A stretch of DNA of 64,000 nucleotides, taken from the NCBI GenBank assembly GCA_016193335.1, contig JACPSK010000001.1, forward strand, positions 585,440-649,439, given 5' to 3'. The notes below the pieces were generated by a model. That model saw nothing but the letters and a program-made list of their open reading frames with translations. It made no database searches and was not told the origin of the DNA. This document shows positions 690 to 38,435 of this stretch, piece after piece. The position numbers were made by a program, and so were the translations under genes. Numbering within the stretch: position 1 is the stretch's first letter; every line of letters starts with the position of its first letter. Origin of the DNA: Candidatus Magasanikiibacteriota bacterium. Lineage in GTDB: Bacteria; Patescibacteriota; Patescibacteriia; Magasanikbacterales; UBA922.

Positions 690-719
690 TTATCCACAGA
701 ATCCACAGTCTTTCCACAC
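690..719 (+). promoter_or_regulatory. DnaA-box cluster upstream of dnaA (oriC / dnaA autoregulatory region)
   Basis: TTATCCACA (690-698, perfect consensus), AATCCACAG (700-708) and TTTCCACAC (711-719) lie back-to-back in the AT-rich rpmH-dnaA intergenic region. Confidence 0.7.
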
Positions 720-2208: not shown

Positions 2209-2454
2209 AACCTGGGCATAAGCTGTCTAAAACCAAAAAAAAATCTGTTCATAAAAACAAAAGGTATACACACAAAATCAACAAACAATTCCAAACAAAA
2301 AAAATCACACACACATTAAACAAAAATATCCCCACAAATTGTTTAAAAAAAAAGAAGAAAAATTATCTTAACTGAGCCTTTTAAAAAATTTATCCACCGT
2401 ATTCACAGCCCTTATTATATATTACTACTATTTTAAAATTAAATAATATAATAT
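2209..2454 (+). promoter_or_regulatory. dnaA-dnaN intergenic AT-rich region with a DnaA box (candidate oriC DNA-unwinding element)
   Basis: Very AT-rich with poly-A runs. TTATCCACC at 2389-2397 is followed by a short TA-only stretch immediately 5' of dnaN. This matches the classical bipartite oriC layout. Confidence 0.55.
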
Positions 2455-10755: not shown

Positions 10756-11113
10756 AAAAAAATAGAATATATCAGATATGATTTTACGGTATTGGAGGTT
10801 AATTTTTTCTTAAGACAATTTTTTTGGGTTTTTGCGTACAATGTGGGAGATTGACAGAAAGATAGGATTCTGTTACATTAATTTATCACTTTTTAACTTA
10901 TTCCGGTTGAGAAGTGTTTGTTCTTTACAGGCTTTGAGCATAAGTCTATACAATTATCTATCAAGATAGATGCGTTCTTGACACAACGATAGACGAGGTT
11001 TCGGGCTTTATTTCGTTCCGAGTTATGCAAAAAAATCTGAGATTGTTTTTTCCGTTTTAAAAGGTTTTTTGGCACGACTTGGAACTGAGGCGTTCGAACT
11101 TGGGAGGGGACAA

Positions 11114-11908
11114 ATGGGAGACGCAAAGGTTGTGAGTTTGAGGGGCGAGCAGAATTCCAGCTCAGGTGGGCCGGGGGGACCGGAAAGGCCGTCTTCTTTC
11201 CTTGACAAGAGACGAGTTACCTGGCTGGTTACCGCTTTGGCGGTTTTGACGATGGCTCTTTTGTTTTTCGCCTTCGTTGCGGTCTGGACCAGGCTCAAGG
11301 CTTACGATGAGAGCCATGTCTTGGTGGGCGTTGAGAGTTTTCGCGCCTTGTCTTACCAAGCCTCATTGAGCGAGTCTTTGAGCAAAAACAACATTGTCTT
11401 TTATGAAGCGCTGAAACAGGCTCTGGACGAAAAGAAGTCCCTCGAGCTCCGGATTCAAGCCTTGCAGAAGGGACCCGGCTTTGGGGAAGGCTATGTTGAG
11501 GGCCGTCGGGAGGCCCTTGACCATGTGGCGCTACGTCTCGGCCTGGGAAGCGAGTTTTTCGACCAGCTTCTCTGGACTGCCGAGATTTGCCATGGTGACT
11601 CTAACTTGGTCTGGATGCGGGATCAACTCGCCGGCATCGCGGCCGGCTTTGGCTGCTCCTGCTACTGTTCAGAGCTGGTTAATCTGACAATTAAAGATGC
11701 CAGCCTGGAGCAGGTGCTTGCCTTTCTCGCAAGGGAATCCGGCGTTCCTGTGTTTAACGACGCCAAGATCACAGGAAACGTGACGTTGCGGTTCACAGAC
11801 ATACCCGCAAGTCTCGCGCTTCAGGCCATCGTAGGGCAGTTTGGCGCGGATCTGCGCTTCGAAGACGGCGCATACCATGTCGTGCCCTTTGTTGTAGGGG
11901 GAAAGTAA
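11114..11908 (+). CDS. GC-rich membrane-anchored protein with a C-terminal STN / secretin-N-like domain
   Basis: The ORF opens at TTG 11069. ATG 11114 is preceded by GGGAGGGG, so I prefer it. A single TM helix (LVTALAVLTMALLFFAFVAVW), a coiled-coil-like region, then VNLTIKDASLEQVLAFLARESGVPVFNDAKITGNVTLRFTDIPASLALQAIVGQFGADLRF. This resembles the STN / Secretin_N fold of TonB-dependent receptors and secretins. Codons are GC3-rich, unlike the neighbouring genes. Confidence 0.6.
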   Translation: MGDAKVVSLRGEQNSSSGGPGGPERPSSFLDKRRVTWLVTALAVLTMALLFFAFVAVWTRLKAYDESHVLVGVESFRALSYQASLSESLSKNNIVFYEALKQALDEKKSLELRIQALQKGPGFGEGYVEGRREALDHVALRLGLGSEFFDQLLWTAEICHGDSNLVWMRDQLAGIAAGFGCSCYCSELVNLTIKDASLEQVLAFLARESGVPVFNDAKITGNVTLRFTDIPASLALQAIVGQFGADLRFEDGAYHVVPFVVGGK

Positions 11909-11994: not shown

Positions 11995-12462
11995 TCATGC
12001 GGATAGGCGCTTATTTTTTTCATGCCGATCTGAGATTAATAGCAAGACTCCAAGTATAATGAGAATATCGGCCATATTGATGACTGAACCCAAAATGCGT
12101 ATATAATCAATAGTCGCCGAATACACAATACGGTCTATCAAATTTGAGATCGCTCCACTTGCGATGAAGGCGAGCGCGTAAAATGAAAGTATCGTTTTCT
12201 TTTCTGATTTTGAAAGATATAGGAAACCAATGAACAGAATAAGAAAACTAAGGGGGATGATCACATAATGGGGGATGGGTATGCCAAAAGCAACACCAGG
12301 ATTTTTTAAATATTCCCATCCGAGCCAGGGCTTGATGTAATAATAACTAAGATTTTGATGATATTCCGCAATATATTTTAAGATTTGGTCTGCTATTAAA
12401 AAAAGTCCACCGATTGCAGGAGCAATCAAGAGGTGGACTTTTTGTTTTTGCATATGCATCAC
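11995..12462 (-). CDS. lspA: Lipoprotein signal peptidase II
   Basis: 155 aa with four TM segments and the conserved blocks NPGVAFGI and INMADILIILGVLLL (FNxAD-like). Confidence 0.8.
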   Translation of the reverse strand: MMHMQKQKVHLLIAPAIGGLFLIADQILKYIAEYHQNLSYYYIKPWLGWEYLKNPGVAFGIPIPHYVIIPLSFLILFIGFLYLSKSEKKTILSFYALAFIASGAISNLIDRIVYSATIDYIRILGSVINMADILIILGVLLLISDRHEKNKRLSA

Positions 12463-12505
12463 GGTTCTCTGTGGTCTATGGTCTCGTTGCGAACAAACGA
12501 GTTGT

Positions 12506-12898
12506 CTAGACTTCGTTGGTAAGCGTTTTTTTGCAACTGACGCAGGAACTGGAGGTCGGCCGAGCCAATAATCTTTTTTCGTCTATGGGTTGATCGCAGT
12601 ATTTACAAATCCCGTAGCTATCTTCTTTTATTCGCTTTAGGGCTGTGTTGACATCACGCAAAGATTTTTCCAGAGTCATTTCCAAAGGTTTATTGCTGAG
12701 ATAGTCCGCGATTTCGCGCGCGTTTTCATCGCTTTCTTCACCATATTCAGGAAAACTTGCGTCAAAATCACCATCCACATGTGGGTTGGGGGTAGAGAAA
12801 CCCAAAAGCTCTTTTTCGAGTTTTTGTTTTGTGGCTTCGAGAGACAAGCGAATTTTTTCTAAAAAATCCGTGCTGAATGCGCTGGCTTTTTTTGCCAT
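12506..12898 (-). CDS. DksA/TraR-family C4 zinc-finger regulator (start placed at the internal MAKKASAF)
   Basis: C-terminal CKYCDQPIDEKRLLARPTSSSCVSCKK four-Cys finger preceded by a coiled-coil region. The upstream 32 codons of the listed ORF look non-coding. Confidence 0.7.
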   Translation of the reverse strand: MAKKASAFSTDFLEKIRLSLEATKQKLEKELLGFSTPNPHVDGDFDASFPEYGEESDENAREIADYLSNKPLEMTLEKSLRDVNTALKRIKEDSYGICKYCDQPIDEKRLLARPTSSSCVSCKKTLTNEV

Positions 12899-13185
12899 AT
12901 GAGTAAACGTATAAAGAAAGCAAAGGGGGAAATGAATCAAATAAAGTGAAGGGATTATACAGTGTGGAAGAACAAAAAGCAAGGTTTCGCGCAAGTCTCT
13001 GAGCTTGGCTAGTACTTGGTTTTAAATCCGGATCAAAGTTGGGGCAAGCGAGTGTCATAATTCTCCCTTGTTTGGTTTTGAAAACAACTTGTCTCAGCTA
13101 AATCGGATTTTTACCGGCCAACTCGGGTGGGAGACATGCTTAGCTATAGATAATATAGTATTTATAGAAAGAAACAATAAAAAAA

Positions 13186-13410
13186 GAGGCAGAGTACGCC
13201 CCAAGGAAGACTATGTGGCTTTCTGCCTCTAGTTATCCCAGGGTGCGGTGGTTCCGAACAATATAGACGTTTAATGAAGATAAGCGTACATATTGTTCGG
13301 AAGCAGCCAGCGTATGCTGGGATAAAGTGCTCTTACACCGCTCCTGCGTGATACGTTCCTACACCGTCCGGTTAGGGATGCAGGTGCGTAAACGGAACGC
13401 CACTGATGCT
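13186..13410 (+). ncRNA. Candidate structured non-coding RNA (identity unresolved; weak SRP-RNA-like GGAAGCAGCC motif)
   Basis: GC-rich island with no ORF inside a 1.3-kb non-coding stretch. Nested helices are GAGGCAG/CTGCCTC, CCCAGGG..CTGGG and CCGAACAATAT..ATATTGTTCGG. GTTCGGAAGCAGCCAG is similar to the SRP RNA helix-8 motif, but the expected GNRA tetraloop is replaced by an insertion. Confidence 0.3.
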
Positions 13411-13697
13411 TAGCCATTCACATATAATTTTAACCTTTGATGTTGGTTTTTGGATATCAAGCGATATCTAAGCGGCTAAGCAAAAGAAGCAGTGAAAAGA
13501 GAAGTACAACATCTGATCCATTATGGTGGAGAGTTGTACGATTTTAAGGATCACAAAAGTAGTATAGCATATTTTAAACATTTTGTCAACGGAGAGGTTT
13601 TTTTGTCTAGATTTAGCTAAAAAACGTTGTTATTTGGCTTATTTTAGCATATTTTTTTGTATACACCTTTATATACAAATATATATTGTGAAAGTAA

Positions 13698-13927
13698 TTA
13701 TCCACAAATTCCTGTATTTTTCCCCATACTTATCCACAGTGTATAGAATATTGTATACAAAAAGCATATTTTTTTGTTGATTTTCTGTGTTTTTCCTCTG
13801 ATTTCCTTGTTTATGTTTTGAATGTGACATTATTAAAGTTTCAGTATGAATGCCTTATGAATATATTTTTTAGTTATTTGGGTAGTTTTTCCACAGAAAT
13901 ATGGAGTTTTCCACCTTTTTATCCACA
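13698..13927 (+). promoter_or_regulatory. Second DnaA-box cluster (three perfect TTATCCACA plus two one-mismatch boxes), 11 kb from dnaA
   Basis: Perfect boxes at 13698-13706, 13730-13738 and 13919-13927. TTTTCCACA at 13887-13895 and TTTTCCACC at 13907-13915. All are on the same strand and flanked by AT-rich TTGTATAC repeats. Confidence 0.6.
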
Positions 13928-14383
13928 TTTGTATAGGTTTTTGTATACTTTTTATTCAATCAACTAATTTTTCGTGGGTTTGCTCCGGAGTTTCCTTTGA
14001 GCTACCTCGCGGCTCTGCTACGGAGTAGCTCATTCGGTCAGAGGCGCCGAGGTTGATAAGAGCTTTTTATTTTCAGCCCTTTTTCCCGCGTTAAGTTGTT
14101 TCCGTTCTTTGAAACAGAAAACCAAACACTGTCGAGTCATTGCGCCATGGTAAAAGGCGAAAGAGCTTGGAGCAGGTGTTTGGTTTTTGTTTTTGTAGGT
14201 GGAATTTTTGATTGATTCGCCCCTTAAAGATAAGTAAGCGGCATTGTTTGGTTCTTATGTGGAGTATTAAGGTATGTTTATCCCCAGCTTTGGATCTGAT
14301 CCTTGAATAAAAAAAATAATGTTGTTATTATTACAAATAACTTCAAACTTGCCTCGGGGCAAGAGGGAAATGGAGGTAGAGAA

Positions 14384-14641
14384 ATGTCTCGGTTCAAGTG
14401 GTTGGCGTTCGCCGCGATCCTCGCGGTGTCCGCCTTCATCATCGCGGCCAGTCCCCCGACGGACGAGGGTAGCACGGCCATCACGCAGAGCACGGGCAAC
14501 GCGCTGACCAACACGGGCCAGATCACGACCACGACGTCGCCGCCGGAGGTCGGTGACATCCCCACGGGCGTGGTCACGAGCGCCGCCGCGACGACGGGCA
14601 ACACCGGCCAGGTGAACACGGGCCCACAGATCGGCCCCTAG
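14384..14641 (+). CDS. Small secreted Thr/Gly/Asn-rich peptide encoded in a sharply GC-rich island
   Basis: SD GGAGGTAGAGAA precedes ATG 14384. Signal peptide MSRFKWLAFAAILAVSAFIIAASPP, then TGNALTNTGQITTTTSPPEVGDIPTGVVTSAAATTGNTGQVNTGPQIGP. Nearly every codon ends in G or C, whereas the flanks are AT-rich. Confidence 0.55.
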   Translation: MSRFKWLAFAAILAVSAFIIAASPPTDEGSTAITQSTGNALTNTGQITTTTSPPEVGDIPTGVVTSAAATTGNTGQVNTGPQIGP

Positions 14642-14709
14642 GCGCTCTCTCGACGTCTCGCCTTCTGGGTCTAGTGCTTCGACCCCCCTCCATTGGCACT
14701 GAAGTGAAG

Positions 14710-14791
14710 ACAACCGCACGCCAGACTACCATTTTTTATACGGCAAAATCGTGTAGAAAGCGGTGGGAGGACTGTGCGGTTGTTTTTTTGT
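14710..14791 (+). terminator. Long-stem terminator downstream of the GC-rich small ORF
   Basis: ACAACCGCAC (14710-14719) pairs with GTGCGGTTGT (14774-14783), followed by TTTTTTT. Confidence 0.45.
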
Positions 14792-14989
14792 TTTATATTT
14801 TTCGAAGCTCATTGAGCCTGGGTTAAAGAAAATTTTATTTGTTTTAAAAACCCCTTAAGAGAGCGGTTTTATTTTATTTTAATTTTGATTTTTGTATGGT
14901 TCTCATTGAACCCTGACCACACCTGTCCGGATAGGGAGCTTTTGCCAGTTTGTTGGAAGAGATTTGATTTATTAGAAATTAAAAATTTA

Positions 14990-15027
14990 AAATTGTTTAA
15001 AAATTATAAATTTTAAATTAAAAATTT
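14990..15027. repeat. Palindromic AT-rich intergenic motif, copy A
   Basis: AAATTGTTTAAAAATTATAAATTTTAAATTAAAAATTT lies immediately upstream of the 15043 gene. Near-identical copies are at 51923-51958 and 46593-46636, with a weaker one at 48733-48762. Confidence 0.5.
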
Positions 15028-15042
15028 AATCAGGGAGGGATT

Positions 15043-18000
15043 ATGGAATATATTTTGTCGCGTTTTTTGAATATGAGTTTGATGGTACTGACCAGTTTGG
15101 CATTTTCATTTCAAACACCGGAAGTATCAATGATCATAAATGAAATAGGCGCTTATGAGAAGAAAGATTATGAATGGATAGAAGTTTTTAATGCTTCAGA
15201 CCATGAGACGGATATGAAGGACTGGAGTTTTTGGGAACAAGACGTGAATCATGGTTTGACGCTGGCCCAAGGAGAAGACAGTATCGTTGGAGTTGGAGAA
15301 TACGCGCTGGTGGTTCAGAATTTTGGAAAATTTAAAGAATTGTATCCGAATGTTACGAGCACTATATTTGATAGTTCCTGGGCTTCGCTTAATGAAGGAG
15401 GAGAAGAAATAGGTTTGAGAGATCCCGAGGACAATCTGGCGGAACATTTTGTGTATATGCCGGCTGAGGAGAAATCACTCGAACGTGTGGAAATTTTTAC
15501 TGATATATACACAGAAGAAAACTGGAAGAAACATCCGGAGTCAAACTCAGCGGGATTTGCCAATTACTGGGCCGCGCAAGAAAGAGCAGAAGATTCCACT
15601 GACATTGATTTTGGTGAAGACTTTCCGGAAGAGCAAACCGGAACTCAAAGTGTTCCGGAATCTGCGGAGGAAGCTGGCACGGAATTTTTTAATAAGACCC
15701 TGGTCGCGCAGATGGAGCTCGGCGCCACGTCCACCTATGTGGGTGTAGCTGTTGTATTTGATGCCTCGGAGTCGTATGACAATGATGGACAAATACTTTC
15801 GTATTACTGGGATTTTGGCGATAAGTCTTTTTCAAGCAGTTCTCTTGCTTCGCATCATTATTCCGCTACAGGCACTTTTATGATTGAGCTCTCGGTAAAC
15901 GATGGATACGCGACAAATACAGCAAGCACGAGTTTGAAAGTGGAAGAGTTGTTTTTAGGAGGAAAAGGCGAAAATTCAAGTTTAGACAGCGGGCCTCAAC
16001 TGGGCGCGGATGCTCTCCCCAATCCTCTCGACCCGCGTGAATATATTTTTATCAATGAATTTGTTTCATATCCTAATGAAGGACAGACAGAATGGGTTGA
16101 ATTGTTTAACGCGGCCAGCTCTTCATTTCAGATTAATGGTTGGAGACTTAGAGATGGCAAGGGACAGATAGCTTTTGTGAGCTCTACCATAAACGGAGGA
16201 GCCTATATCCTTGTTGAATTGGAAAAGAATGTTTTAAATAACAGCGGCGATCTCATACGTCTTGAGGATGAAAAAGCGGTATTGGTTGACCAAGTAGCAT
16301 ACGGCGACTGGGAGAATGAAATTGGATTAACTAAGATGTTCTCAATTCCGCGCGCTTACTCATTGGGAAGGTTTGGAGATTACACAGGGAAAGTATATGG
16401 ACTCAATGTTTTTAAACTTACGTCTTTAACAAGTCCCGGGGCTCTGAACTATTGGAGTGGAAAGGGCGAAGAGCTTCAACCTACGCATCAGTCTTCACTT
16501 GATATCGGCAGTAATTCGGGCGGAGCGGTTCAGAATCCAAAGGGTTTGGAAAATATCTCAAAAGATACGTCTTACACGAAAGATACTTTTGTTTCTTCTT
16601 CAAAAATCATCTATAAAAAGGGTGAGATTGTAATAAGTGAAATTTTTCCCAATCCGAAGGGTTCGGATACGAGTGATGAATTTATAGAATTATATAATTT
16701 GGCTGATAGAAGTATCGATCTGTCGGCGTGGAAACTCGGGGATGGTTCTGCGCGAAGATATGCTATTGATGATGTCTTGCTTGGGCCGGGTGAATACCGG
16801 GCTTTTAAAAGAAGCGAAACTCATATTTCTCTGAACAACACGGGCGCTGAAGAAGTTTTGCTTTTTGGACCGGACGCAGGCCTCTTGGACCAGGTTTCTT
16901 ACGATGGATCGCACGAGGGACAGGCTTACATGCGTAATGACCGCGGAACATGGTTTTGGACGGCAGAGCCAAGCCCCGGGGCTGGCAATATCTTAAAAAA
17001 TTTAGATTCTGTTTCTTCAACGGCTTCAAGTACTATTCAACTTAAAACACAAGAGGAGAAGTCTGAAGAAGAATTTTCGTTTTTCGTTCCTGACGATTTT
17101 ATGTTTATTGAGATTTCAGAAATCTTCCCCAATCCTTCGGGACTTGATGACAAAGAATTTATTGAACTTTACAACAGGGGGAGCGCGGCCATTGATCTCG
17201 CGGGGCTCAAACTTGATGATGAAGAAGGTGGATCCAGACCTTATGAATTCTCGGACAATACGATTATACCCGCGTACTCATTCAGAGTTTTTTATAAAGA
17301 AGAGACCGGTTTGACTTTGAATAATTCGTTTGATTCGGCGCGTCTCTTGCTTCCTGGCGGAGAAATATTGCAGGAGATATTCTTTACAGACGTGATCGAA
17401 GGCGCTTCATTCAGCAGAGCCAATAATGACGCCTGGGACTGGACTATTATACTTACGCCTGGAGCCCCTAACGAGATTGTATTTGGAAATCAGACTTCTC
17501 CAAACACCAAAGCAGGTCTTCGCTCAGCCCTTCCGAAATCTTTCGCTGAAACACAGCTTGGCAGTCTGGCGAATTATGAGGCCGGGGACAGAATTAAAGT
17601 GAAAGGGACGGTTGCCGTGGCTCCCGGCGTGTTTGGATCTCAGTATTTTTATATGGTTGATATGGGACCGCTCGGCTCGGTATCGAGTTCGTTGGGCGGT
17701 GTCCAGGTGTATATGAATAAGAAAGATTTTCCACAATTAATTACAGGAGACTATGTTCAAGTGGCAGGAGAACTTTCTGATGTTCGAGGTGAGCCTCGGT
17801 TAAAAATTTCAGCGAAAGAAGATATTGTGAAACTCGATCATGTTGGCTTGGGTTCTCCAGGGCTTTTGGAGATATCGGAAATAGAAAATAGACAGCTTGG
17901 CGGGATGATTCGCGTGGAAGGCGAAATAACTTCTTTGAAAAGCACGTATATGTTCGTGGATGACGGGACTGGAGAAATAAAAGTGTATTTTAAAAAGGGG

Positions 18001-32895: not shown

Positions 32896-34644
32896 CTAGC
32901 TGTCCAGTCTGCTCGGTCTCAGACGAGCCATGTCGTGGACCATGAACCCCCGTCCAGAACCCAGGTCGGAAATGACTCCGGCTTCTTTGATTCTACCCAT
33001 GACTCGGATCACGGTCTCGAGCGTCATCCCGGTGAGCTCGCCGAGCCGTTGCCGGGTAAGATCCAAGGACACGAGGCGTCCACGGCTGTCTCCTTCCACG
33101 CCGAACCTGGTGGCGAGCAAGAAGAACAAGTAGCGTAGTCTCGTCTCCGCCGAGGCGTTGGCCAGCAAGCTTGCACGCAGAGCGTCTCTCTGCGCACGTC
33201 CGCCGAGGCGGCCCCAGAACAAGCTGCGCAATCCCGGGTCTTTCTGGAATTTCTCCCAGAATGTGGCCGATGGAACCCGAATCAATACACCAGGATCCAG
33301 GGTCAGGATAGTTTCCGTGTACTTGGTGGTGCCACAGTACATATCCCCAAGGATTTCTCCACTGCCGTGCACATCGAGAATGCCGGTGTACTCACCGTTT
33401 TCATATTCTCGGACAACGCGGCCAGAGAGCAGGAGGAAAACGTCCTCAGGATCTGCACCCTGTCGGTACACGTGGGCCCTGCGCCGGTAGGCTTCGATCT
33501 CGCCGAGATCAAGCAGGTAGCTGGGCCAAGTTCCGGGGAGTCCGCCTTCCCGCTTGATCTGGCTCGCTACACGGCTGATTCTGGCGTTCGCTTTTTCTCC
33601 GTGCGATTGATAGGCTATGCTGGGCCTAAATGCCGGAGGATCAGGCCGGTCAATAACCAGGGCAGAGGCATCCGTCCGAGTGTAGACAGGGTGTCCAGTA
33701 TCTGGTCTCTTTTTTTCAGTTGCCGCCTCGTCGTCCGGAACACGGGTTTCCTCGTCTTCTCGGCTGTCTTCATGGTCATCATCTTCCCATTCCAGATCAG
33801 CCGGTTCAGGCAAGTCCTCAGGCTTATCAGTGAGAGGCTGGTCGCCCTCAGCTCTTGCTTCTGCGGCCGCTGCTCTAAGGGCGCGTTCGGCCAGTTGCTG
33901 AAAATACTGAATGGCCCCTTTGACCGAGATCTTGGCCATGCCATGGTAAACGTTGTTCAGCTCTCGGAGAGCTGCGCGCATGGCATCGTGAGTAGTACAG
34001 AAACGAATCAGCACTTCTGCCACGCCCAGCTTCAGACGATCGTCTGCTACTGCCTCCTGTAAGTCTTCAGGGAGCTTCAAGAGGTCGAGTCGCTTGCAGA
34101 TATGACCCTGGGAACGGCCCACCTTCTTCCCGAGTTGGCCTTGGGTAAAGCCGCCTTCATCGATCGCTTGCTGGAAGGCGTGGGCTTCCTCAATCGGGTT
34201 GAGGGGCGTTCTGACCAGGTTTTCCACGAGGCCGATCATGTAGGACTGCGGATCAGCAACCCTGATGACCGCGCGGATCAACTTTCTGCCGAGCCTGACG
34301 TGCGCCCGCCAGCGAGTCTCGCCAGCCACTAACATAAACAAACCCGTCTCAGCATGATCAGGCGCTGGCTTCAACACCACGGCGCTGATCAGGCCGTCGG
34401 CCTCGATTGAGTCGGCCATCTGTTGGATAGCCTCCTCCGTGAAACGCTTTCGACCCTGTTTGGGGTCAGCCACAATCCGAGCTACGGGAACCATGTATTC
34501 CCTGCTCGGGGCTTCTTCAACGTCCTCTCGGTGAACGACTTCTGCAAGTGTGCTGATAGACATGCCTAATGCCTCCCGTATCTTGGTTTTCCGCAGGACA
34601 AAAGACCCTGGAATACAATATCTAACTACCAGTTCCATTGTCAA
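32896..34644 (-). CDS. GC-rich fusion protein: ParB/Spo0J-like N-terminal and HTH domains, an acidic linker, then a Crp/Fnr-type cNMP-binding domain with a winged HTH
   Basis: N-terminal ParB motifs (GETRWRAHVRLG, LVENLVRTPLNPIEEAHAFQQAIDEGGFTQGQLGKKVGRSQGHICKRLDLLKLP). Asp/Glu-rich linker. C-terminal cNMP-binding beta-roll (VFLLLSGRVVREYENGEYTGILDVHGSGEILGDM) and Crp-type HTH (TRQRLGELTGMTLETVIRVMGRIKEAG). A likely alternative start is MSISTLAEV at 34563, preceded by GGGAGG. GC3-biased. Confidence 0.7.
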   Translation of the reverse strand: MTMELVVRYCIPGSFVLRKTKIREALGMSISTLAEVVHREDVEEAPSREYMVPVARIVADPKQGRKRFTEEAIQQMADSIEADGLISAVVLKPAPDHAETGLFMLVAGETRWRAHVRLGRKLIRAVIRVADPQSYMIGLVENLVRTPLNPIEEAHAFQQAIDEGGFTQGQLGKKVGRSQGHICKRLDLLKLPEDLQEAVADDRLKLGVAEVLIRFCTTHDAMRAALRELNNVYHGMAKISVKGAIQYFQQLAERALRAAAAEARAEGDQPLTDKPEDLPEPADLEWEDDDHEDSREDEETRVPDDEAATEKKRPDTGHPVYTRTDASALVIDRPDPPAFRPSIAYQSHGEKANARISRVASQIKREGGLPGTWPSYLLDLGEIEAYRRRAHVYRQGADPEDVFLLLSGRVVREYENGEYTGILDVHGSGEILGDMYCGTTKYTETILTLDPGVLIRVPSATFWEKFQKDPGLRSLFWGRLGGRAQRDALRASLLANASAETRLRYLFFLLATRFGVEGDSRGRLVSLDLTRQRLGELTGMTLETVIRVMGRIKEAGVISDLGSGRGFMVHDMARLRPSRLDS

Positions 34645-34755
34645 TTTATTTTTATTTTATACATTGTGTGGATAACTTTTTGATATTTGGTATTTAATGA
34701 TATTTTTTCGCTAGGTTGCGTTTTTTCTCTGGGGTTTGGAGGCCTTTTTGCTTTG

Positions 34756-34764
34756 TGTTATAAT
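34756..34764 (+). promoter_or_regulatory. Extended -10 promoter element for nrdJ
   Basis: TGTTATAAT (TGn-TATAAT). Confidence 0.5.
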
Positions 34765-34784
34765 GATTAAGCCTGTCGTTCAAT

Positions 34785-34828
34785 CCCATATATTGTGGTT
34801 AAAATATATTTGGGCCACTATATATGGG
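34785..34828 (+). promoter_or_regulatory. Pair of NrdR-box-like palindromes
   Basis: CCCATATATTGTGG (34785-34798) and CCACTATATATGGG (34815-34828) match the NrdR box consensus (acaCwAtATaTwGtgt). Their 30-bp centre spacing is close to the usual three helical turns. They sit between the promoter and the nrdJ start. Confidence 0.55.
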
Positions 34829-34835
34829 ATTGTTA

Positions 34836-34872
34836 ACGCCACAGACGAGAGGCAGAAGCGTGGCGTTTTTTT
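34836..34872 (+). promoter_or_regulatory. Terminator-like hairpin with a U-tract in the nrdJ 5' leader (possible attenuator)
   Basis: ACGCCAC-AGACGAGAGGCAGAAGC-GTGGCGT followed by TTTTTTT, 26 nt before the nrdJ ATG. No co-directional upstream gene exists for it to terminate. Confidence 0.45.
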
Positions 34873-34898
34873 AACTTTAGAGATTTACAAAAAACAAT

Positions 34899-37800
34899 AT
34901 GGGGTCAACACAAACGAAGAGTTTCCAAGGTCTTGCTCTCGGGCAAGGGGAAGATACCGAGTTTACATACAATGAGAACGGGCTTAGATTCAAGAGAAAA
35001 TTCAGTGAAGAGGGCAAAAGTCCTTTTGACTTGGTCGAATATGAGTTAAGGACCTCTACGATTCGAGAGCCGGACGGAACCGTGGTGTTTGAAATGAAAA
35101 ATCTGGAGATTCCCAAACAGTGGTCTCAAGTGGCCACGGATATTATCGCTCAGAAATATTTCAGAAAGGCCGGCGTGCCGCAGTATCAAGAAGATGGAAA
35201 CCCAAAATTGAACCCTGACGGATCTACCATGCTTGGATCCGAAACGAGCGCCAAACAGACTATGCATCGTCTGGCCGGCACTTGGCGCTATTGGGGCGAA
35301 AAGTACGGGTATTTCGCGTCTCGTGAAGACGCGCAGATTTTTTATGATGAATTGGTAGTGATGCTGCTCAAGCAAATGGCTGCCCCCAATTCTCCGCAAT
35401 GGTTTAATACAGGGCTCCAATGGGCCTATGGCATAGATGGTCCTGCTCAGGGACACTATTATGTGGATCCTGACACCGGGGCCATGACCCGTTCAAAAGA
35501 CGCTTATACGCATCCACAGCCGCATGCTTGTTTCATTCAGTCTGTGGAAGACGACCTGGTAAACGAAGGTGGAATAATGGATCTCTGGGTTAGAGAAGCT
35601 CGTTTGTTTAAATACGGTTCAGGCACAGGCACCAATTTTTCCGGTTTGCGGGGCAAAGGCGAACCTTTGTCCGGCGGTGGCAAATCAAGCGGCCTTATGA
35701 GCTGGCTCAAGATAGGAGATCGCGCGGCCGGCGCCATAAAATCCGGAGGTACCACCAGACGAGCCGCGAAGATGGTCATTTTGGACTTGGATCACCCTGA
35801 TATTGAAGAATTTGTTAATTGGAAAGTGGGAGAAGAAAAGAAAGTCGCGGCCATGATAGCCTCCGGGTATCCTTCTGATTATGAAGGCGAAGCGTACCAG
35901 ACCGTGTCAGGACAGAATTCAAATAATTCAGTGCGCGTGCCGAACAAGTTTATGGAAGCGCTGGAAAATAGTGGTAGCTGGAATTTTACCTGGCGCACAG
36001 ATGGAACCATTTGCAAAACAATTAAAGCCCGGACACTTTGGGACCAGATCGCTTACGCGGCTTGGGCTTGCGCTGATCCGGGACTTCAATTTGATGACAA
36101 TATAAACGAATGGCATACCTGTCCTGAATCCGGCAAAATTCGCGGCTCCAATCCTTGCAGTGAATACATGTTTTTGGATAATACATCTTGCAATCTCGCT
36201 TCTCTTAACCTTGAACATTTTTTTAATCAGGAAACTCAGACTTTTGACGTTGACTTGTTTAAACATGGAGTGCGTTTGTGGACCGTGGTCTTGGAAATAA
36301 GCGTCCTCATGGCTCAGTTTCCGAGCAAAGAAATAGCCGAGATGAGTTATGAGTTTAGAACGCTTGGTCTTGGCTATGCGAATATCGGTTCTGTATTGAT
36401 GACTGCGGGTATCCCATACGAATCTGAAGAAGCCTACGCGTTTACCGGCAGTGTTACTGCCATTATGACTGCGGAATCCTACAAAGCCAGCGCTGAAATG
36501 GCCAAATTTTTGGGTCCTTTTCAAAAATATGAATTGAATAAATCTGATATGCTTCGGGTGATGAGAAATCATCGGCGCGCATCCTTTAATGTCCCGGACA
36601 ATGAATACGAAAAATTGAGCGTAAAGCCTCAAGGTATCAGGCCAGAGCATGCCCCGGCTTATCTTCTCGCCGCCGCTCGTGAGCTTTGGAATGAAGCCGT
36701 GGATATGGGTGAAAAATATGGATACAGAAACGCCCAAACCACGCTTTTGGCCCCTACAGGCACTATTGGTCTTTTGATGGATTGCGCCACCACGGGGGTG
36801 GAGCCTGATTTTGCTTTGGTTAAATTCAAGAAATTGGCAGGCGGGGGATATTTTAAAATTGTGAATGAAGCAGTGCCAGTGGCGCTTAGAAATTTGGGGT
36901 ATGCCGAAGAGCAGGTAACTGATATCGTAAATTATATGAAAGGGGTGGGAAGCATCAATGAGGCTCCCCACATCAATTCCCTTTCCTTAAAAGAAAAAGG
37001 ATTCACGGATGAGGATATTAAGAGTGTGAACAAAGCTTTGGGCAGTGCGTTTGAAATACAATTCGCCTTTAATGTGTGGACTTTGGGTGAAGACTGTTTA
37101 AAGCGAGTTGGATTTGGCGCGGGAGAATATAATGACCCGAATTTCAATATGCTCAAAGCAATGGGTTTTAGCAGAGAACAGATCGAGGGGGCCAATGAAT
37201 ATGTATGCGGGACCATGACCATAGAAGGCGCTCCTTATCTCAAAGAAGAACATTACCCGATTTTTGATTGCGCGAACAAGTGCGGCAAAAAAGGAAAACG
37301 CTTTATACATTGGAGAGGGCATTTGCGACAGATGGCTTCGGCCCAGCCTTTTTTGTCAGGAGCCATTTCAAAGACGATAAATATGCCGAATGAGGTGACG
37401 GTGGAAGATGTAAAACAAGCATATTGGGAATCATGGGAATTGTGTTTGAAAGCTGTTGCTTTGTATCGTGACGGATGCAAGCTTAGCCAGCCACTTTCCA
37501 CTTCTTCGGACGCGAAAGAAGATGATGATGTTTCGCTTGAGTCTAAACCTTTGGCAAAAAAGGAAGAAGTCATATCAGAAGTCCCGAGTTCTGTCGTTGC
37601 GCCGACCACTTCTCCTCTGTCCGCCGCATCAATTCCTGAATTTGAATACGACGATGCTTCGGATATAGCCCGCGCCATACAAGAGGCCAGTAAATTACTC
37701 AAACAGCATATTCCGGATTCTCACGCTTTGGAGAGTTATAGCAAAGAAGGAGAAGTAACCGATCATCGCATCTATATTCATGGAGAAAAGCGAAGTCTAC

Positions 37801-38435
37801 CGGCCAAACGCAGTGGTATAACGGTTTCGGCTCGGATTGGAAATCAAAAGATATGGCTGAGAACCGGAGAATACCCGGATGGCAAACTCGCGGAGATTTT
37901 TATTGATATGTACAAAGAGGGGGCCGCTTTCAGAAGTTTGTTGAATTTGTTCGCTATTTCAATCTCCATAGGCCTTCAGTATGGAATTCCGCTCGAAAAA
38001 CTCGTGGATAAATTTACTTTCACCCGTTTTGATCCTGCGGGCATGACTGATCACCCGAATGTAAAAATATGCACTTCGGTTATAGATTGGGTGTTTCGTG
38101 TTTTGGGAATGGAATATCTGGGGAGAACCGATTTTGTCCAAGTTTCACCCAAGGGCGTGCAAAAAAATAAATTTGAACAAATGGCCAAGCTTGCGGAAAT
38201 CACCACCAAGCAAACATCTCTCGAGCTTGGGCGTTCCACTGCCCAGGAAGAAATGGATGCTCAAGCGGCATTACCCAGTTTAGAGAATCCCAAGACCATC
38301 GGTGGAGGTATTGACGAGGCCTTGAGTACTATGATGGGAGACGCGCCGGCTTGTCCCACCTGCGGACATATAACCGTTCGGAACGGGAGTTGTTACAAGT
38401 GTCTAAACTGCGGGGATAGTTTGGGGTGCAGTTAA
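34899..38435 (+). CDS. nrdJ: Adenosylcobalamin-dependent ribonucleoside-diphosphate/triphosphate reductase (class II RNR, NrdJ) with a C-terminal Zn ribbon
   Basis: 1178 aa. Class II RNR core with active-site NPCSE(Y) and TLLAPTG. C-terminal CPTCGHITVRNGSCYKCLNCGDSLGC. Confidence 0.92.
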   Translation: MGSTQTKSFQGLALGQGEDTEFTYNENGLRFKRKFSEEGKSPFDLVEYELRTSTIREPDGTVVFEMKNLEIPKQWSQVATDIIAQKYFRKAGVPQYQEDGNPKLNPDGSTMLGSETSAKQTMHRLAGTWRYWGEKYGYFASREDAQIFYDELVVMLLKQMAAPNSPQWFNTGLQWAYGIDGPAQGHYYVDPDTGAMTRSKDAYTHPQPHACFIQSVEDDLVNEGGIMDLWVREARLFKYGSGTGTNFSGLRGKGEPLSGGGKSSGLMSWLKIGDRAAGAIKSGGTTRRAAKMVILDLDHPDIEEFVNWKVGEEKKVAAMIASGYPSDYEGEAYQTVSGQNSNNSVRVPNKFMEALENSGSWNFTWRTDGTICKTIKARTLWDQIAYAAWACADPGLQFDDNINEWHTCPESGKIRGSNPCSEYMFLDNTSCNLASLNLEHFFNQETQTFDVDLFKHGVRLWTVVLEISVLMAQFPSKEIAEMSYEFRTLGLGYANIGSVLMTAGIPYESEEAYAFTGSVTAIMTAESYKASAEMAKFLGPFQKYELNKSDMLRVMRNHRRASFNVPDNEYEKLSVKPQGIRPEHAPAYLLAAARELWNEAVDMGEKYGYRNAQTTLLAPTGTIGLLMDCATTGVEPDFALVKFKKLAGGGYFKIVNEAVPVALRNLGYAEEQVTDIVNYMKGVGSINEAPHINSLSLKEKGFTDEDIKSVNKALGSAFEIQFAFNVWTLGEDCLKRVGFGAGEYNDPNFNMLKAMGFSREQIEGANEYVCGTMTIEGAPYLKEEHYPIFDCANKCGKKGKRFIHWRGHLRQMASAQPFLSGAISKTINMPNEVTVEDVKQAYWESWELCLKAVALYRDGCKLSQPLSTSSDAKEDDDVSLESKPLAKKEEVISEVPSSVVAPTTSPLSAASIPEFEYDDASDIARAIQEASKLLKQHIPDSHALESYSKEGEVTDHRIYIHGEKRSLPAKRSGITVSARIGNQKIWLRTGEYPDGKLAEIFIDMYKEGAAFRSLLNLFAISISIGLQYGIPLEKLVDKFTFTRFDPAGMTDHPNVKICTSVIDWVFRVLGMEYLGRTDFVQVSPKGVQKNKFEQMAKLAEITTKQTSLELGRSTAQEEMDAQAALPSLENPKTIGGGIDEALSTMMGDAPACPTCGHITVRNGSCYKCLNCGDSLGCS

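Follow-up and report, generated by a model that had tools for sequence, protein, structure and literature searches.

The stretch of DNA analyzed here (the window) comprises 64,000 nucleotides of contig JACPSK010000001.1 from a Candidatus Magasanikiibacteriota bacterium (assembly GCA_016193335.1), in which an earlier note, made from the sequence alone, had drawn attention to a second cluster of DnaA boxes at 13698-13927, distant from the boxes beside dnaA. The cluster lies in a spacer bounded on one side by the start of a gene for a DksA/TraR-type zinc-finger protein and on the other by a gene for a lamin-tail-domain protein at 15043, and the only open reading frame (ORF) inside this spacer is 14385-14641. 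The note had described the surroundings as gene-free. They are indeed ORF-free over 12899-14384, and up to 15042 if the one ORF, of 69% GC, is ignored; however, they hold what we regard as a real, previously uncatalogued structured RNA gene, which is the structured GC-rich element that the note had seen there and which has a promoter and a terminator of its own on the minus strand. Between this promoter and the variable sequence beyond lies a cassette of DnaA boxes bracketed by palindromes (Table 1). Below we describe the cassette, its conservation and its relationship to the RNA gene and to the replication origin, and weigh what it may do.

Table 1. Features of the locus and of the origin region, with coordinates in the window.
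Feature	Coordinates	Strand	Description
DnaA box 1, module A	13698..13706	+	Perfect TTATCCACA; columns invariant or nearly so in 37 aligned relatives
Weak DnaA box 2, module A	13718..13726	+	TTTTCCCCA, 2 mismatches; 20 bp start-to-start from box 1
DnaA box 3, module A	13730..13738	+	Perfect TTATCCACA; 12 bp start-to-start from box 2
Module B	13887..13927	+	TTTTCCACA-N11-TTTTCCACC-N3-TTATCCACA; 20/12 spacing as in module A; 189 bp downstream
Palindrome P1	13659..13676	.	GTATACACCTTTATATAC; between box 1 and the RNA promoter
Palindrome P2	13741..13758	.	GTATAGAATATTGTATAC; starts 2 bp after box 3
Palindrome P3	13931..13948	.	GTATAGGTTTTTGTATAC; after module B
Small imperfect inverted repeat	13605..13617	.	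Family consensus GCTAAnTTnAGC; just upstream of the -35 hexamer (alignment consensus)
Near-consensus sigma-70 promoter	13561..13589	-	TTGACA-17-TG-n-TATACT; 11/12 matches plus extended -10; reads away from the boxes
Novel ~375-nt structured non-coding RNA gene (predicted)	13180..13554	-	Promoter, terminator, fold, covariation
Conserved RNA core domain	13328..13402	-	GGYG..UCCC-A.UUAUG-hairpin-GGGA..CACC..YGGU-AGAAGGG; window match 34.7 bits, E = 1.7e-5
Intrinsic terminator stem of the RNA	13186..13202	-	T-run out to ~13176
DksA/TraR-type zinc-finger gene	12506..12898	-	Syntenic anchor; own promoter TTGCTT-17-TGTATAAT at 12954-12984
lspA	11995..12459	-	Follows the DksA/TraR-type gene
Canonical unwinding region (context)	2390..2454	+	Tandem boxes TTATCCACC, GTATTCACA (2390-2407), GCCC spacer, trios, AT-rich stretch
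Three tandem boxes upstream of dnaA (context)	690..718	+	TTATCCACA, GAATCCACA, CTTTCCACA

Perfect TTATCCACA boxes occur five times in the window, at 690, 13698, 13730 and 13919 on the plus strand and at 34667 on the minus strand, so that the three reported for the cluster, all of which we recovered, make up three-fifths of the total. Of the two one-mismatch boxes reported with them, that at 13887 (TTTTCCACA) stands, while that at 13907 (TTTTCCACC) carries two mismatches, as does a further box at 13718; the 230 bp therefore hold three perfect, one one-mismatch and two two-mismatch boxes. As the earlier note had it, all point the same way, on the plus strand, and the region is AT-rich (28% GC vs 44.6% for the whole window). 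The note had itself raised the objection that similar box densities might arise by chance. In 400 first-order Markov simulations of the window, perfect boxes numbered 0.46 on average per 64 kb, and none of the simulated sequences (0/400) held at least two within 230 bp, which excludes a chance origin of the cluster.

The six boxes form two copies of one module, in which a box, a weak box and a further box are separated by 11 and 3 bp (identical 20/12-bp start-to-start spacing), with the copies 189 bp apart. A palindrome of the form GTATA-N8-TATAC begins 2-3 bp after each module, and a third copy lies upstream of box 1. These three palindromes, at 13659, 13741 and 13931, are the TTGTATAC-type repeats of the earlier note; they prove to be conserved, operator-like elements that bracket the boxes, and no other exact GTATA-N8-TATAC copies occur in the window.

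Conservation of the cassette was examined in 61 loci retrieved by way of the DksA-like protein from GTDB species representatives, nearly all of them Candidatus Magasanikbacteria or related Patescibacteria. (Many of these records, including L018-L021, L029, L030 and L053, are titled "uncultured Gammaproteobacteria bacterium" despite Magasanikbacteria or Patescibacteria gene content, which looks like a systematic mislabel in those submissions.) Among the 55 loci with sufficient upstream sequence, 48 carry, at 400-1250 bp upstream of the DksA-like gene, at least two boxes with no more than one mismatch that lie within 120 bp of each other, compared with 17 of 510 background windows, several of which are true origins beside dnaA. 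About 36 loci have the exact three-box module with 20/12 spacing, and its strand relative to the gene is the same in all of them. When parts of the spacer were searched by blastn against the 61 relatives, only 13698-13763, comprising module A and P2, was matched; no matches were found for 12899-13180, the RNA gene, 13955-14200, the GC-rich ORF or 14700-15042.

The invariant columns in an alignment of 37 sequences are those of boxes 1 to 3, of the palindrome arms and of the two hexamers of the promoter. Moving away from the RNA gene, the consensus order is promoter, small GCTAAnTTnAGC repeat, P1, box 1, weak box 2 (consensus TTTTnCACA, at a fixed place), box 3 and P2, followed after ~15-20 bp by two weak inverted boxes. 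A second module of three boxes and a palindrome is often present 100-330 bp further on in relatives, and module B is its counterpart in the window; the sequence that follows box 3 of module B (tttgtataggtttttgta-t/g-ac) is identical to that of the second module of L058 except for one base. In all, the relatives carry 5-10 boxes in both orientations over ~300 bp. Spacing is rigid inside the cassette, and the distance from box 1 to the -35 hexamer of the RNA promoter, 108 bp in the window, ranges from 84 to 130 bp among relatives. The link between cassette and RNA promoter is kept in a single orientation in about 45 genomes, and everything on the other side of the cassette varies. The cassette is under strong purifying selection and conserved across Magasanikbacteria, an uncultivated candidate phylum of the Candidate Phyla Radiation (CPR).

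The RNA gene that the promoter would transcribe is defined by several features. In 37 loci, positions T180, G182, A183 and A185 of the -35 hexamer TTGACA are invariant, and T181 and C184 nearly so. The predicted transcript folds at -129 kcal/mol (z = -7.9), and in the 35 relatives where it can be delimited it measures 296-490 nt (median 388) and ends in a strong terminator. The RNA has diverged beyond the reach of blastn and was recovered in relatives only through synteny, through promoter plus terminator, and by a covariance model. RNAalifold applied to MAFFT alignments of the whole RNA returned only fragments, and the structural claim is accordingly restricted to two helices of the core domain, GGYG/CACC and UCC/GGA. 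Across these helices 91.8% of alignment cells are paired, vs 83.4% in shuffled alignments (0/500 shuffles reach the observed value) and 45-55% in controls with slid partners. Both sides have changed in 29 cells, for example from G-C to A-U in six sequences and from U-A to C-G in ten, and the hairpin enclosed by the core helices likewise shows strong covariation. Outside the core, conservation extends to a 5' hairpin, a run of pyrimidines, the A-rich linker AAAACAAAAACAAAAG and, within the terminator, the 3' motif GCCACAUAUUACCUAGGGC.

A covariance model of the core (R1) finds one copy per locus in 43 sources at E<=0.01, 15 of them outside the seed, and every copy lies on the gene strand in the spacer between the DksA-like gene and the cassette; its best off-target match in 687 kb has E = 0.066. 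No known family accounts for the RNA. At the gathering score, Rfam 15 matched neither the window nor any of 12 relatives; with the cutoff relaxed to E<=10, the region 12800-15200 and the L029 RNA returned only chance-level hits to microRNA, Phe leader, CbSR1 and long non-coding RNA families. ARAGORN found no transfer-messenger RNA (tmRNA), and regular-expression signatures of RNase P CR-I (strict form), signal recognition particle RNA domain IV and the tmRNA T-arm were absent, with loose RNase P patterns in 2-6 of 36 sequences. The RNA gene contains no conserved ORF. The DksA-like gene has a separate promoter of its own in relatives as well. The ~200 nt between the RNA terminator and the dksA promoter (12985-13180) have no Rfam match, and judged by eye this gap is much shorter in most relatives.

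The palindromes have their own distribution. Their family consensus is TTTGTATAG/C-N6-C/GTATACAAA, often with perfect symmetry, and their density falls from 1.6 per kb within the cassette zone to 0.035 per kb in the rest of the loci. A copy, TTGACAAATTGTATACACTATGGTATACT, sits inside the spacer of the RNA promoter, the position of a repressor operator, in one subclade (L029, L030, L043, L046, L047, L049, L065 and L074). Six loci have extra palindrome clusters 4.5-5.5 kb from the dksA-like gene. A gene for tRNA-Arg(CCT) is flanked by 4-6 GTATA-N8-TATAC palindromes in L037 (491-968), L045 (1111-1514) and L051 (1020-1434), and the cluster in L051 includes another three-box module with 20/12 spacing. 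This suggests that the palindrome-binding factor also acts at a second stable-RNA gene, or that the cassette was duplicated.

Several identities for the palindrome were considered. The canonical parS sequence TGTTNCACGTGAAACA is unrelated to it, and the sole parS match in the window needs three mismatches, which is chance level. Neither the LexA, NrdR, CRP, NtcA and TyrR boxes nor dif-like recombinase sites are known to match it well. The same holds for a GTATAC methylation or SeqA-like scheme, and half-sites such as GTATAG and CTATAC argue against a methylation motif. A role as a -10 element was rejected since the final T is usually missing, and a role as a terminator since the T-run lies on the wrong side.

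The origin of replication lies elsewhere. Cumulative GC skew, followed over 73 kb (9.2 kb of upstream sequence, L001, plus the window), falls steadily to a single sharp V-shaped minimum at 2625, just beyond the dnaA-dnaN spacer and within the start of dnaN, and then rises through the remaining 61 kb; no inflection occurs at 13.8 kb along this track. From 2.6 to 13.8 kb the skew stays at about +0.1 despite genes on both strands and thus reflects replication. The dnaA-dnaN spacer (24% GC) has the arrangement of boxes, trios and AT-rich DNA described for the basal unwinding system of oriC, in which at least three DnaA-trios, typically 3'-GAT-5', begin no more than 16 bp from a box and lead into an AT-rich unwinding region (PMC8287927). 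Its bottom strand reads 3'-TAT AAT GAT GAT AAA-5' (2419-2433), five trios starting 11 bp from the box. The distal cluster resembles such a system in having tandem TTATCCACA-type boxes in AT-rich DNA, whereas the trio run and the skew switch belong to the 2390-2454 spacer, and distal box 3 is followed by a palindrome. At most three trios of the permissive NAN form, which is easily satisfied by chance in AT-rich DNA, were found at the distal boxes; none is GAT, and they overlap box 2 or the palindrome.

In 26 of 27 related loci, crossing the cassette does not alter the sign of the GC skew. With the skew minimum at 2625, trios only at the dnaA-dnaN spacer and the skew sign unchanged in relatives, the distal cluster is not oriC. 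The earlier note's description of DnaA boxes and an AT-rich region at dnaA is borne out, and its suggestion that the distal cluster might be the functional oriC falls to the very skew analysis that it had proposed. An origin predictor guided by box density alone would be misled here, since the true origin has fewer perfect boxes than the distal cluster.

The cassette is nonetheless near the origin, 10.7 kb from dnaA (826-2208) in the window, with the cluster 11 kb from the skew minimum. Within 6-kb flanks, the range in which origin proximity was judged for most relatives, dnaA was found in 5 of 61 (L044, L055, L037, L039 and L067) at 0.8-6 kb, compared with ~1% expected at random in a ~1-Mb genome. 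In L044 only rnpA-rpmH separates the cassette from the dnaA promoter boxes (~0.8 kb), in L055 dnaA-dnaN lies on the other side of the cassette, and in L037, L039 and L067 dnaA is found 5.5-6 kb past lspA in an orientation opposite to that of the window. Origin-proximal rearrangement seems frequent in Magasanikbacteria. Of two further hallmarks of oriC, a cluster of DnaA boxes is present at the distal site, and a constant position next to dnaA/dnaN is absent, since distance, side and orientation all vary among relatives. Such changing geometry, combined with the constant link to the RNA promoter, fits a trans-acting and/or promoter-linked DnaA site and not a cis-acting piece of the origin. Two further observations concern this region. 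The dnaA-dnaN spacer of L044 carries TTATCCACC followed by CTA CTA trios. The RNA gene (13180-13554) and dksA-lspA (11995-12898) are transcribed head-on to the fork leaving the origin at ~2.6 kb, and the sign of the skew suggests that about 20 of 27 relatives share this orientation.

With moderate confidence, we favor the explanation that the cluster is a non-origin, origin-proximal DnaA-box cluster (DBC) of the Bacillus subtilis type, which serves as the conserved upstream control region of the ~375-nt structured RNA gene. The cassette would most likely link the RNA gene, and the level of free DnaA, to the replication initiator. We infer that DnaA would occupy the two strong boxes and that the weak box 2, only 3 bp from box 3, would be filled cooperatively; closely spaced, co-oriented box pairs are reported to be the preferred DnaA substrate in Escherichia coli (PMC11317965). 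A dimeric protein partner would bind the flanking palindromes, and the complex of DnaA and palindrome protein would set the output of the RNA promoter according to the level or nucleotide state of DnaA. The same occupancy would sequester DnaA near the origin and damp re-initiation, since the densest set of perfect boxes in the 64-kb window lies 11 kb from oriC, and the cassette probably has this second role as well.

Several observations weigh against this explanation. First, the boxes lie ~105-150 bp upstream of the -35 hexamer and the distance between box and promoter varies by ~45 bp among relatives, which makes it hard to see how they would touch RNA polymerase directly and gives no hint of whether DnaA would activate or repress the promoter. 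Roles in activation or in DNA architecture are the more usual ones for sites at about -105 to -150. Second, the geometry that is fixed is that of boxes 1, 2 and 3 to one another and of box 3 to P2, not that of boxes to promoter, and the cassette could act independently of a promoter that simply adjoins it. Third, DnaA occupancy, the RNA transcript and the regulatory effect are predictions from sequence, and the palindrome-binding partner is a putative protein. Finally, for most relatives, proximity to the origin was checked within the 6-kb flanks only.

Comparison with the DBCs of B. subtilis clarifies what is shared and what is new. Those clusters are intergenic and oriC-proximal, and were proposed to regulate neighboring genes and to restrain or delay initiation by holding DnaA (Okumura et al. 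2012, PMC3245932); their authors predicted that DBCs would be common in bacteria without SeqA and Hda (PMC3245932). Likewise, the present locus has several consensus boxes in an intergenic cluster near, but outside, the dnaA-dnaN origin and at the promoter of a neighboring gene, a likeness that is one of sequence, with DnaA binding predicted. Unlike in B. subtilis, the neighbor is a non-coding RNA gene, and the fixed three-box module is bracketed by conserved 18-24-bp palindromes, which imply a second protein. Moreover, the pairing of cluster and gene is constant here across a candidate phylum, whereas in Bacillus different genes adjoin the clusters in different species (PMC3245932). DnaA-regulated promoters, whose upstream boxes place transcription under the influence of the initiator, offer another parallel. 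Known examples include those of dnaA, nrdAB and sda, and of Pseudomonas aeruginosa gidAB-parAB at oriCII (PMC13438810). As in these, the boxes lie upstream of a promoter, and nrdJ of this genome also has upstream boxes; the differences are the variable distance noted above and the nature of the target, a structured RNA.

The main alternative, possible but doubtful, is a dedicated DnaA-control locus of the datA/DARS kind, in which a complex of palindromes and boxes changes the nucleotide state of DnaA or stores DnaA, the palindrome protein takes an IHF/Fis-like architectural role, and the RNA promoter is incidental or only supplies supercoiling. Like datA, DARS1 and DARS2 of E. coli, the locus is non-coding and linked to the origin, with a few high-affinity boxes and sites for architectural proteins that are putative here, and datA also adjoins a highly transcribed stable-RNA locus, a tRNA operon (PMC10950094). 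Further points in favor are that spacing is fixed inside the cassette, among the boxes and P2, and not from cassette to promoter, that the 5-10 boxes of relatives, in both orientations, exceed the needs of a simple operator, and that the origin-proximal cassette has more perfect boxes than oriC itself. However, no match to the IHF consensus WATCAANNNNTTR occurs in 13560-13960, the three boxes of the module point one way, and the partner site is a perfect palindrome dissimilar to IHF or Fis sites. The link to one RNA promoter, in one orientation, in the ~45 genomes whose other side varies also argues against it, and the palindrome within the core promoter of one subclade points to transcription control. 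We know of no Hda-, datA- or DARS-type biochemistry outside Proteobacteria. The earlier note had proposed a datA- or DBC-like titration locus; the general kind is supported by an intergenic, origin-proximal position, high-affinity boxes and purifying selection, while a strict datA is not, given the missing IHF-type site. Its DARS-like reading gained no support either for or against.

An unlikely explanation is that the boxes act on rightward promoters, DnaA repressing transcription into 13955-14200 and beyond. A -35-like TCCACA would overlap box 3 or its module B counterpart (3'), and the right half of the palindrome would supply a -10 element, TATACT, at 13944-13949. A promoter scan does score TCCACA-16-TATACT at 13922-13949 with 9/12 matches, and 13955-14200 folds somewhat better than shuffled sequences (z = -2.7), with a stem and T-run at its end. 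Yet the putative -10 is TATACA in most relatives and so misses the key final T, neither sequence nor gene content is conserved to the right of the cassette, and the palindrome also occurs upstream of box 1, where such a role is impossible. The plus strand of 13955-14200 (246 nt) may in its own right encode a lineage-specific small RNA: its promoter-like sequence overlaps the last box (3') and P3, its long stem and T-run span ~14127-14197, and it is not conserved in relatives.

Rather less likely still is that palindromes and boxes are a repeated structural or recombination element, either REP-like (repetitive extragenic palindromic) or, with 9-bp arms around a spacer of 6 bp, core sites for a tyrosine recombinase; their presence would then account for the rearrangements around the origin and would not be a sign of regulation. 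The further palindrome clusters in six loci, the flanking of tRNA-Arg(CCT) in L037, L045 and L051, and the differing position and orientation of dnaA relative to the locus are consistent with this. Against it, copies occur in two kinds of place only, with none elsewhere in the window, and their positions in the cassette are fixed over phylum-level divergence. Many palindrome spacers are themselves symmetric (AATATT, ACTAGT), which leaves the sites without polarity, and a recombinase was seen neither among the genes called at the window locus nor among the unannotated ORFs of ten relatives.

Last and least probable, and largely refuted, is that the cluster serves as the functional oriC or as a cooperating partner of the dnaA-dnaN region in a bipartite origin: its attractions are dense perfect boxes in 26-28% GC DNA, a strong promoter firing away from the cluster, as gidA fires away from E. 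coli oriC, and the L044 cassette so close to the dnaA promoter region, and they are outweighed by the skew, by box 3 running directly into a palindrome with no GAT-type trios beside the boxes, and by a placement relative to dnaA that varies in side, in orientation and in distance, from 0.8 to >10 kb. In addition, the bipartite origins known so far have nothing but the dnaA gene between their halves (PMC3479198).

Other features of the window bear less directly on the cassette. The ORF at 14385-14641 (plus strand, 85 codons) would encode a signal peptide and a low-complexity tail rich in Thr, Gly and Pro, and is absent from all relatives. The spacer around it has the same length in six independent Logan assemblies, and the ORF is therefore probably not an assembly chimera. 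It is one of several GC-rich islands in this 44.6%-GC genome, others being 11069-11908, ~32-35 kb, 55-60 kb and 62-64 kb. The box at 34667, the only perfect DnaA box of the window outside oriC and the cluster, lies in a spacer (34645-34898) together with a one-mismatch box (34794, minus strand) and a match to the IHF consensus at 34673-34685. This spacer parts two divergent genes, the class II nrdJ (34899-38435) and an ORF (32896-34644) that encodes an unusual fusion of ParB_N, ParB-HTH, cNMP-binding and Crp-HTH domains and sits in a GC-rich island. Genes of the nrd group are among the classic targets of DnaA.

Neither non-origin DnaA-box clusters nor promoters regulated by DnaA are new as kinds of element. 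Three features are new here: the fixed cassette of boxes and palindromes, the conservation of this cassette throughout a candidate phylum, and the uncatalogued structured RNA gene with which it is paired; the phylum-wide conservation, the tie in fixed orientation to an RNA promoter beside dksA-lspA and the operator-like nature of the palindromes go beyond the earlier note. A literature search, whose coverage was incomplete and which does not prove absence, turned up no account of such an RNA, nor any of DnaA boxes or origins in Patescibacteria.

CPR bacteria, or Patescibacteria, have ~1-Mb genomes and are mostly unculturable. To our knowledge they lack the known Proteobacterial replication regulators, and we know of no experimental work on the control of their chromosome replication. 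The locus supplies a concrete, phylum-conserved predicted target of DnaA outside the origin, a candidate structured-RNA family with a consensus promoter, one copy per examined locus and clear covariation, and a conserved palindromic putative operator that always accompanies the DnaA boxes. We tentatively raise the possibility, a doubtful one at present, that cassette and RNA together form a single unit of replication control specific to this candidate phylum. The ~375-nt RNA may, in one version, be under DnaA control and feed back on either initiation or the cell cycle; in a second version, the complex of palindromes and boxes may be a datA/DARS-type switch of DnaA activity with a new palindrome-binding partner. 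Either version, if true, would give CPR bacteria their first described replication-control element.

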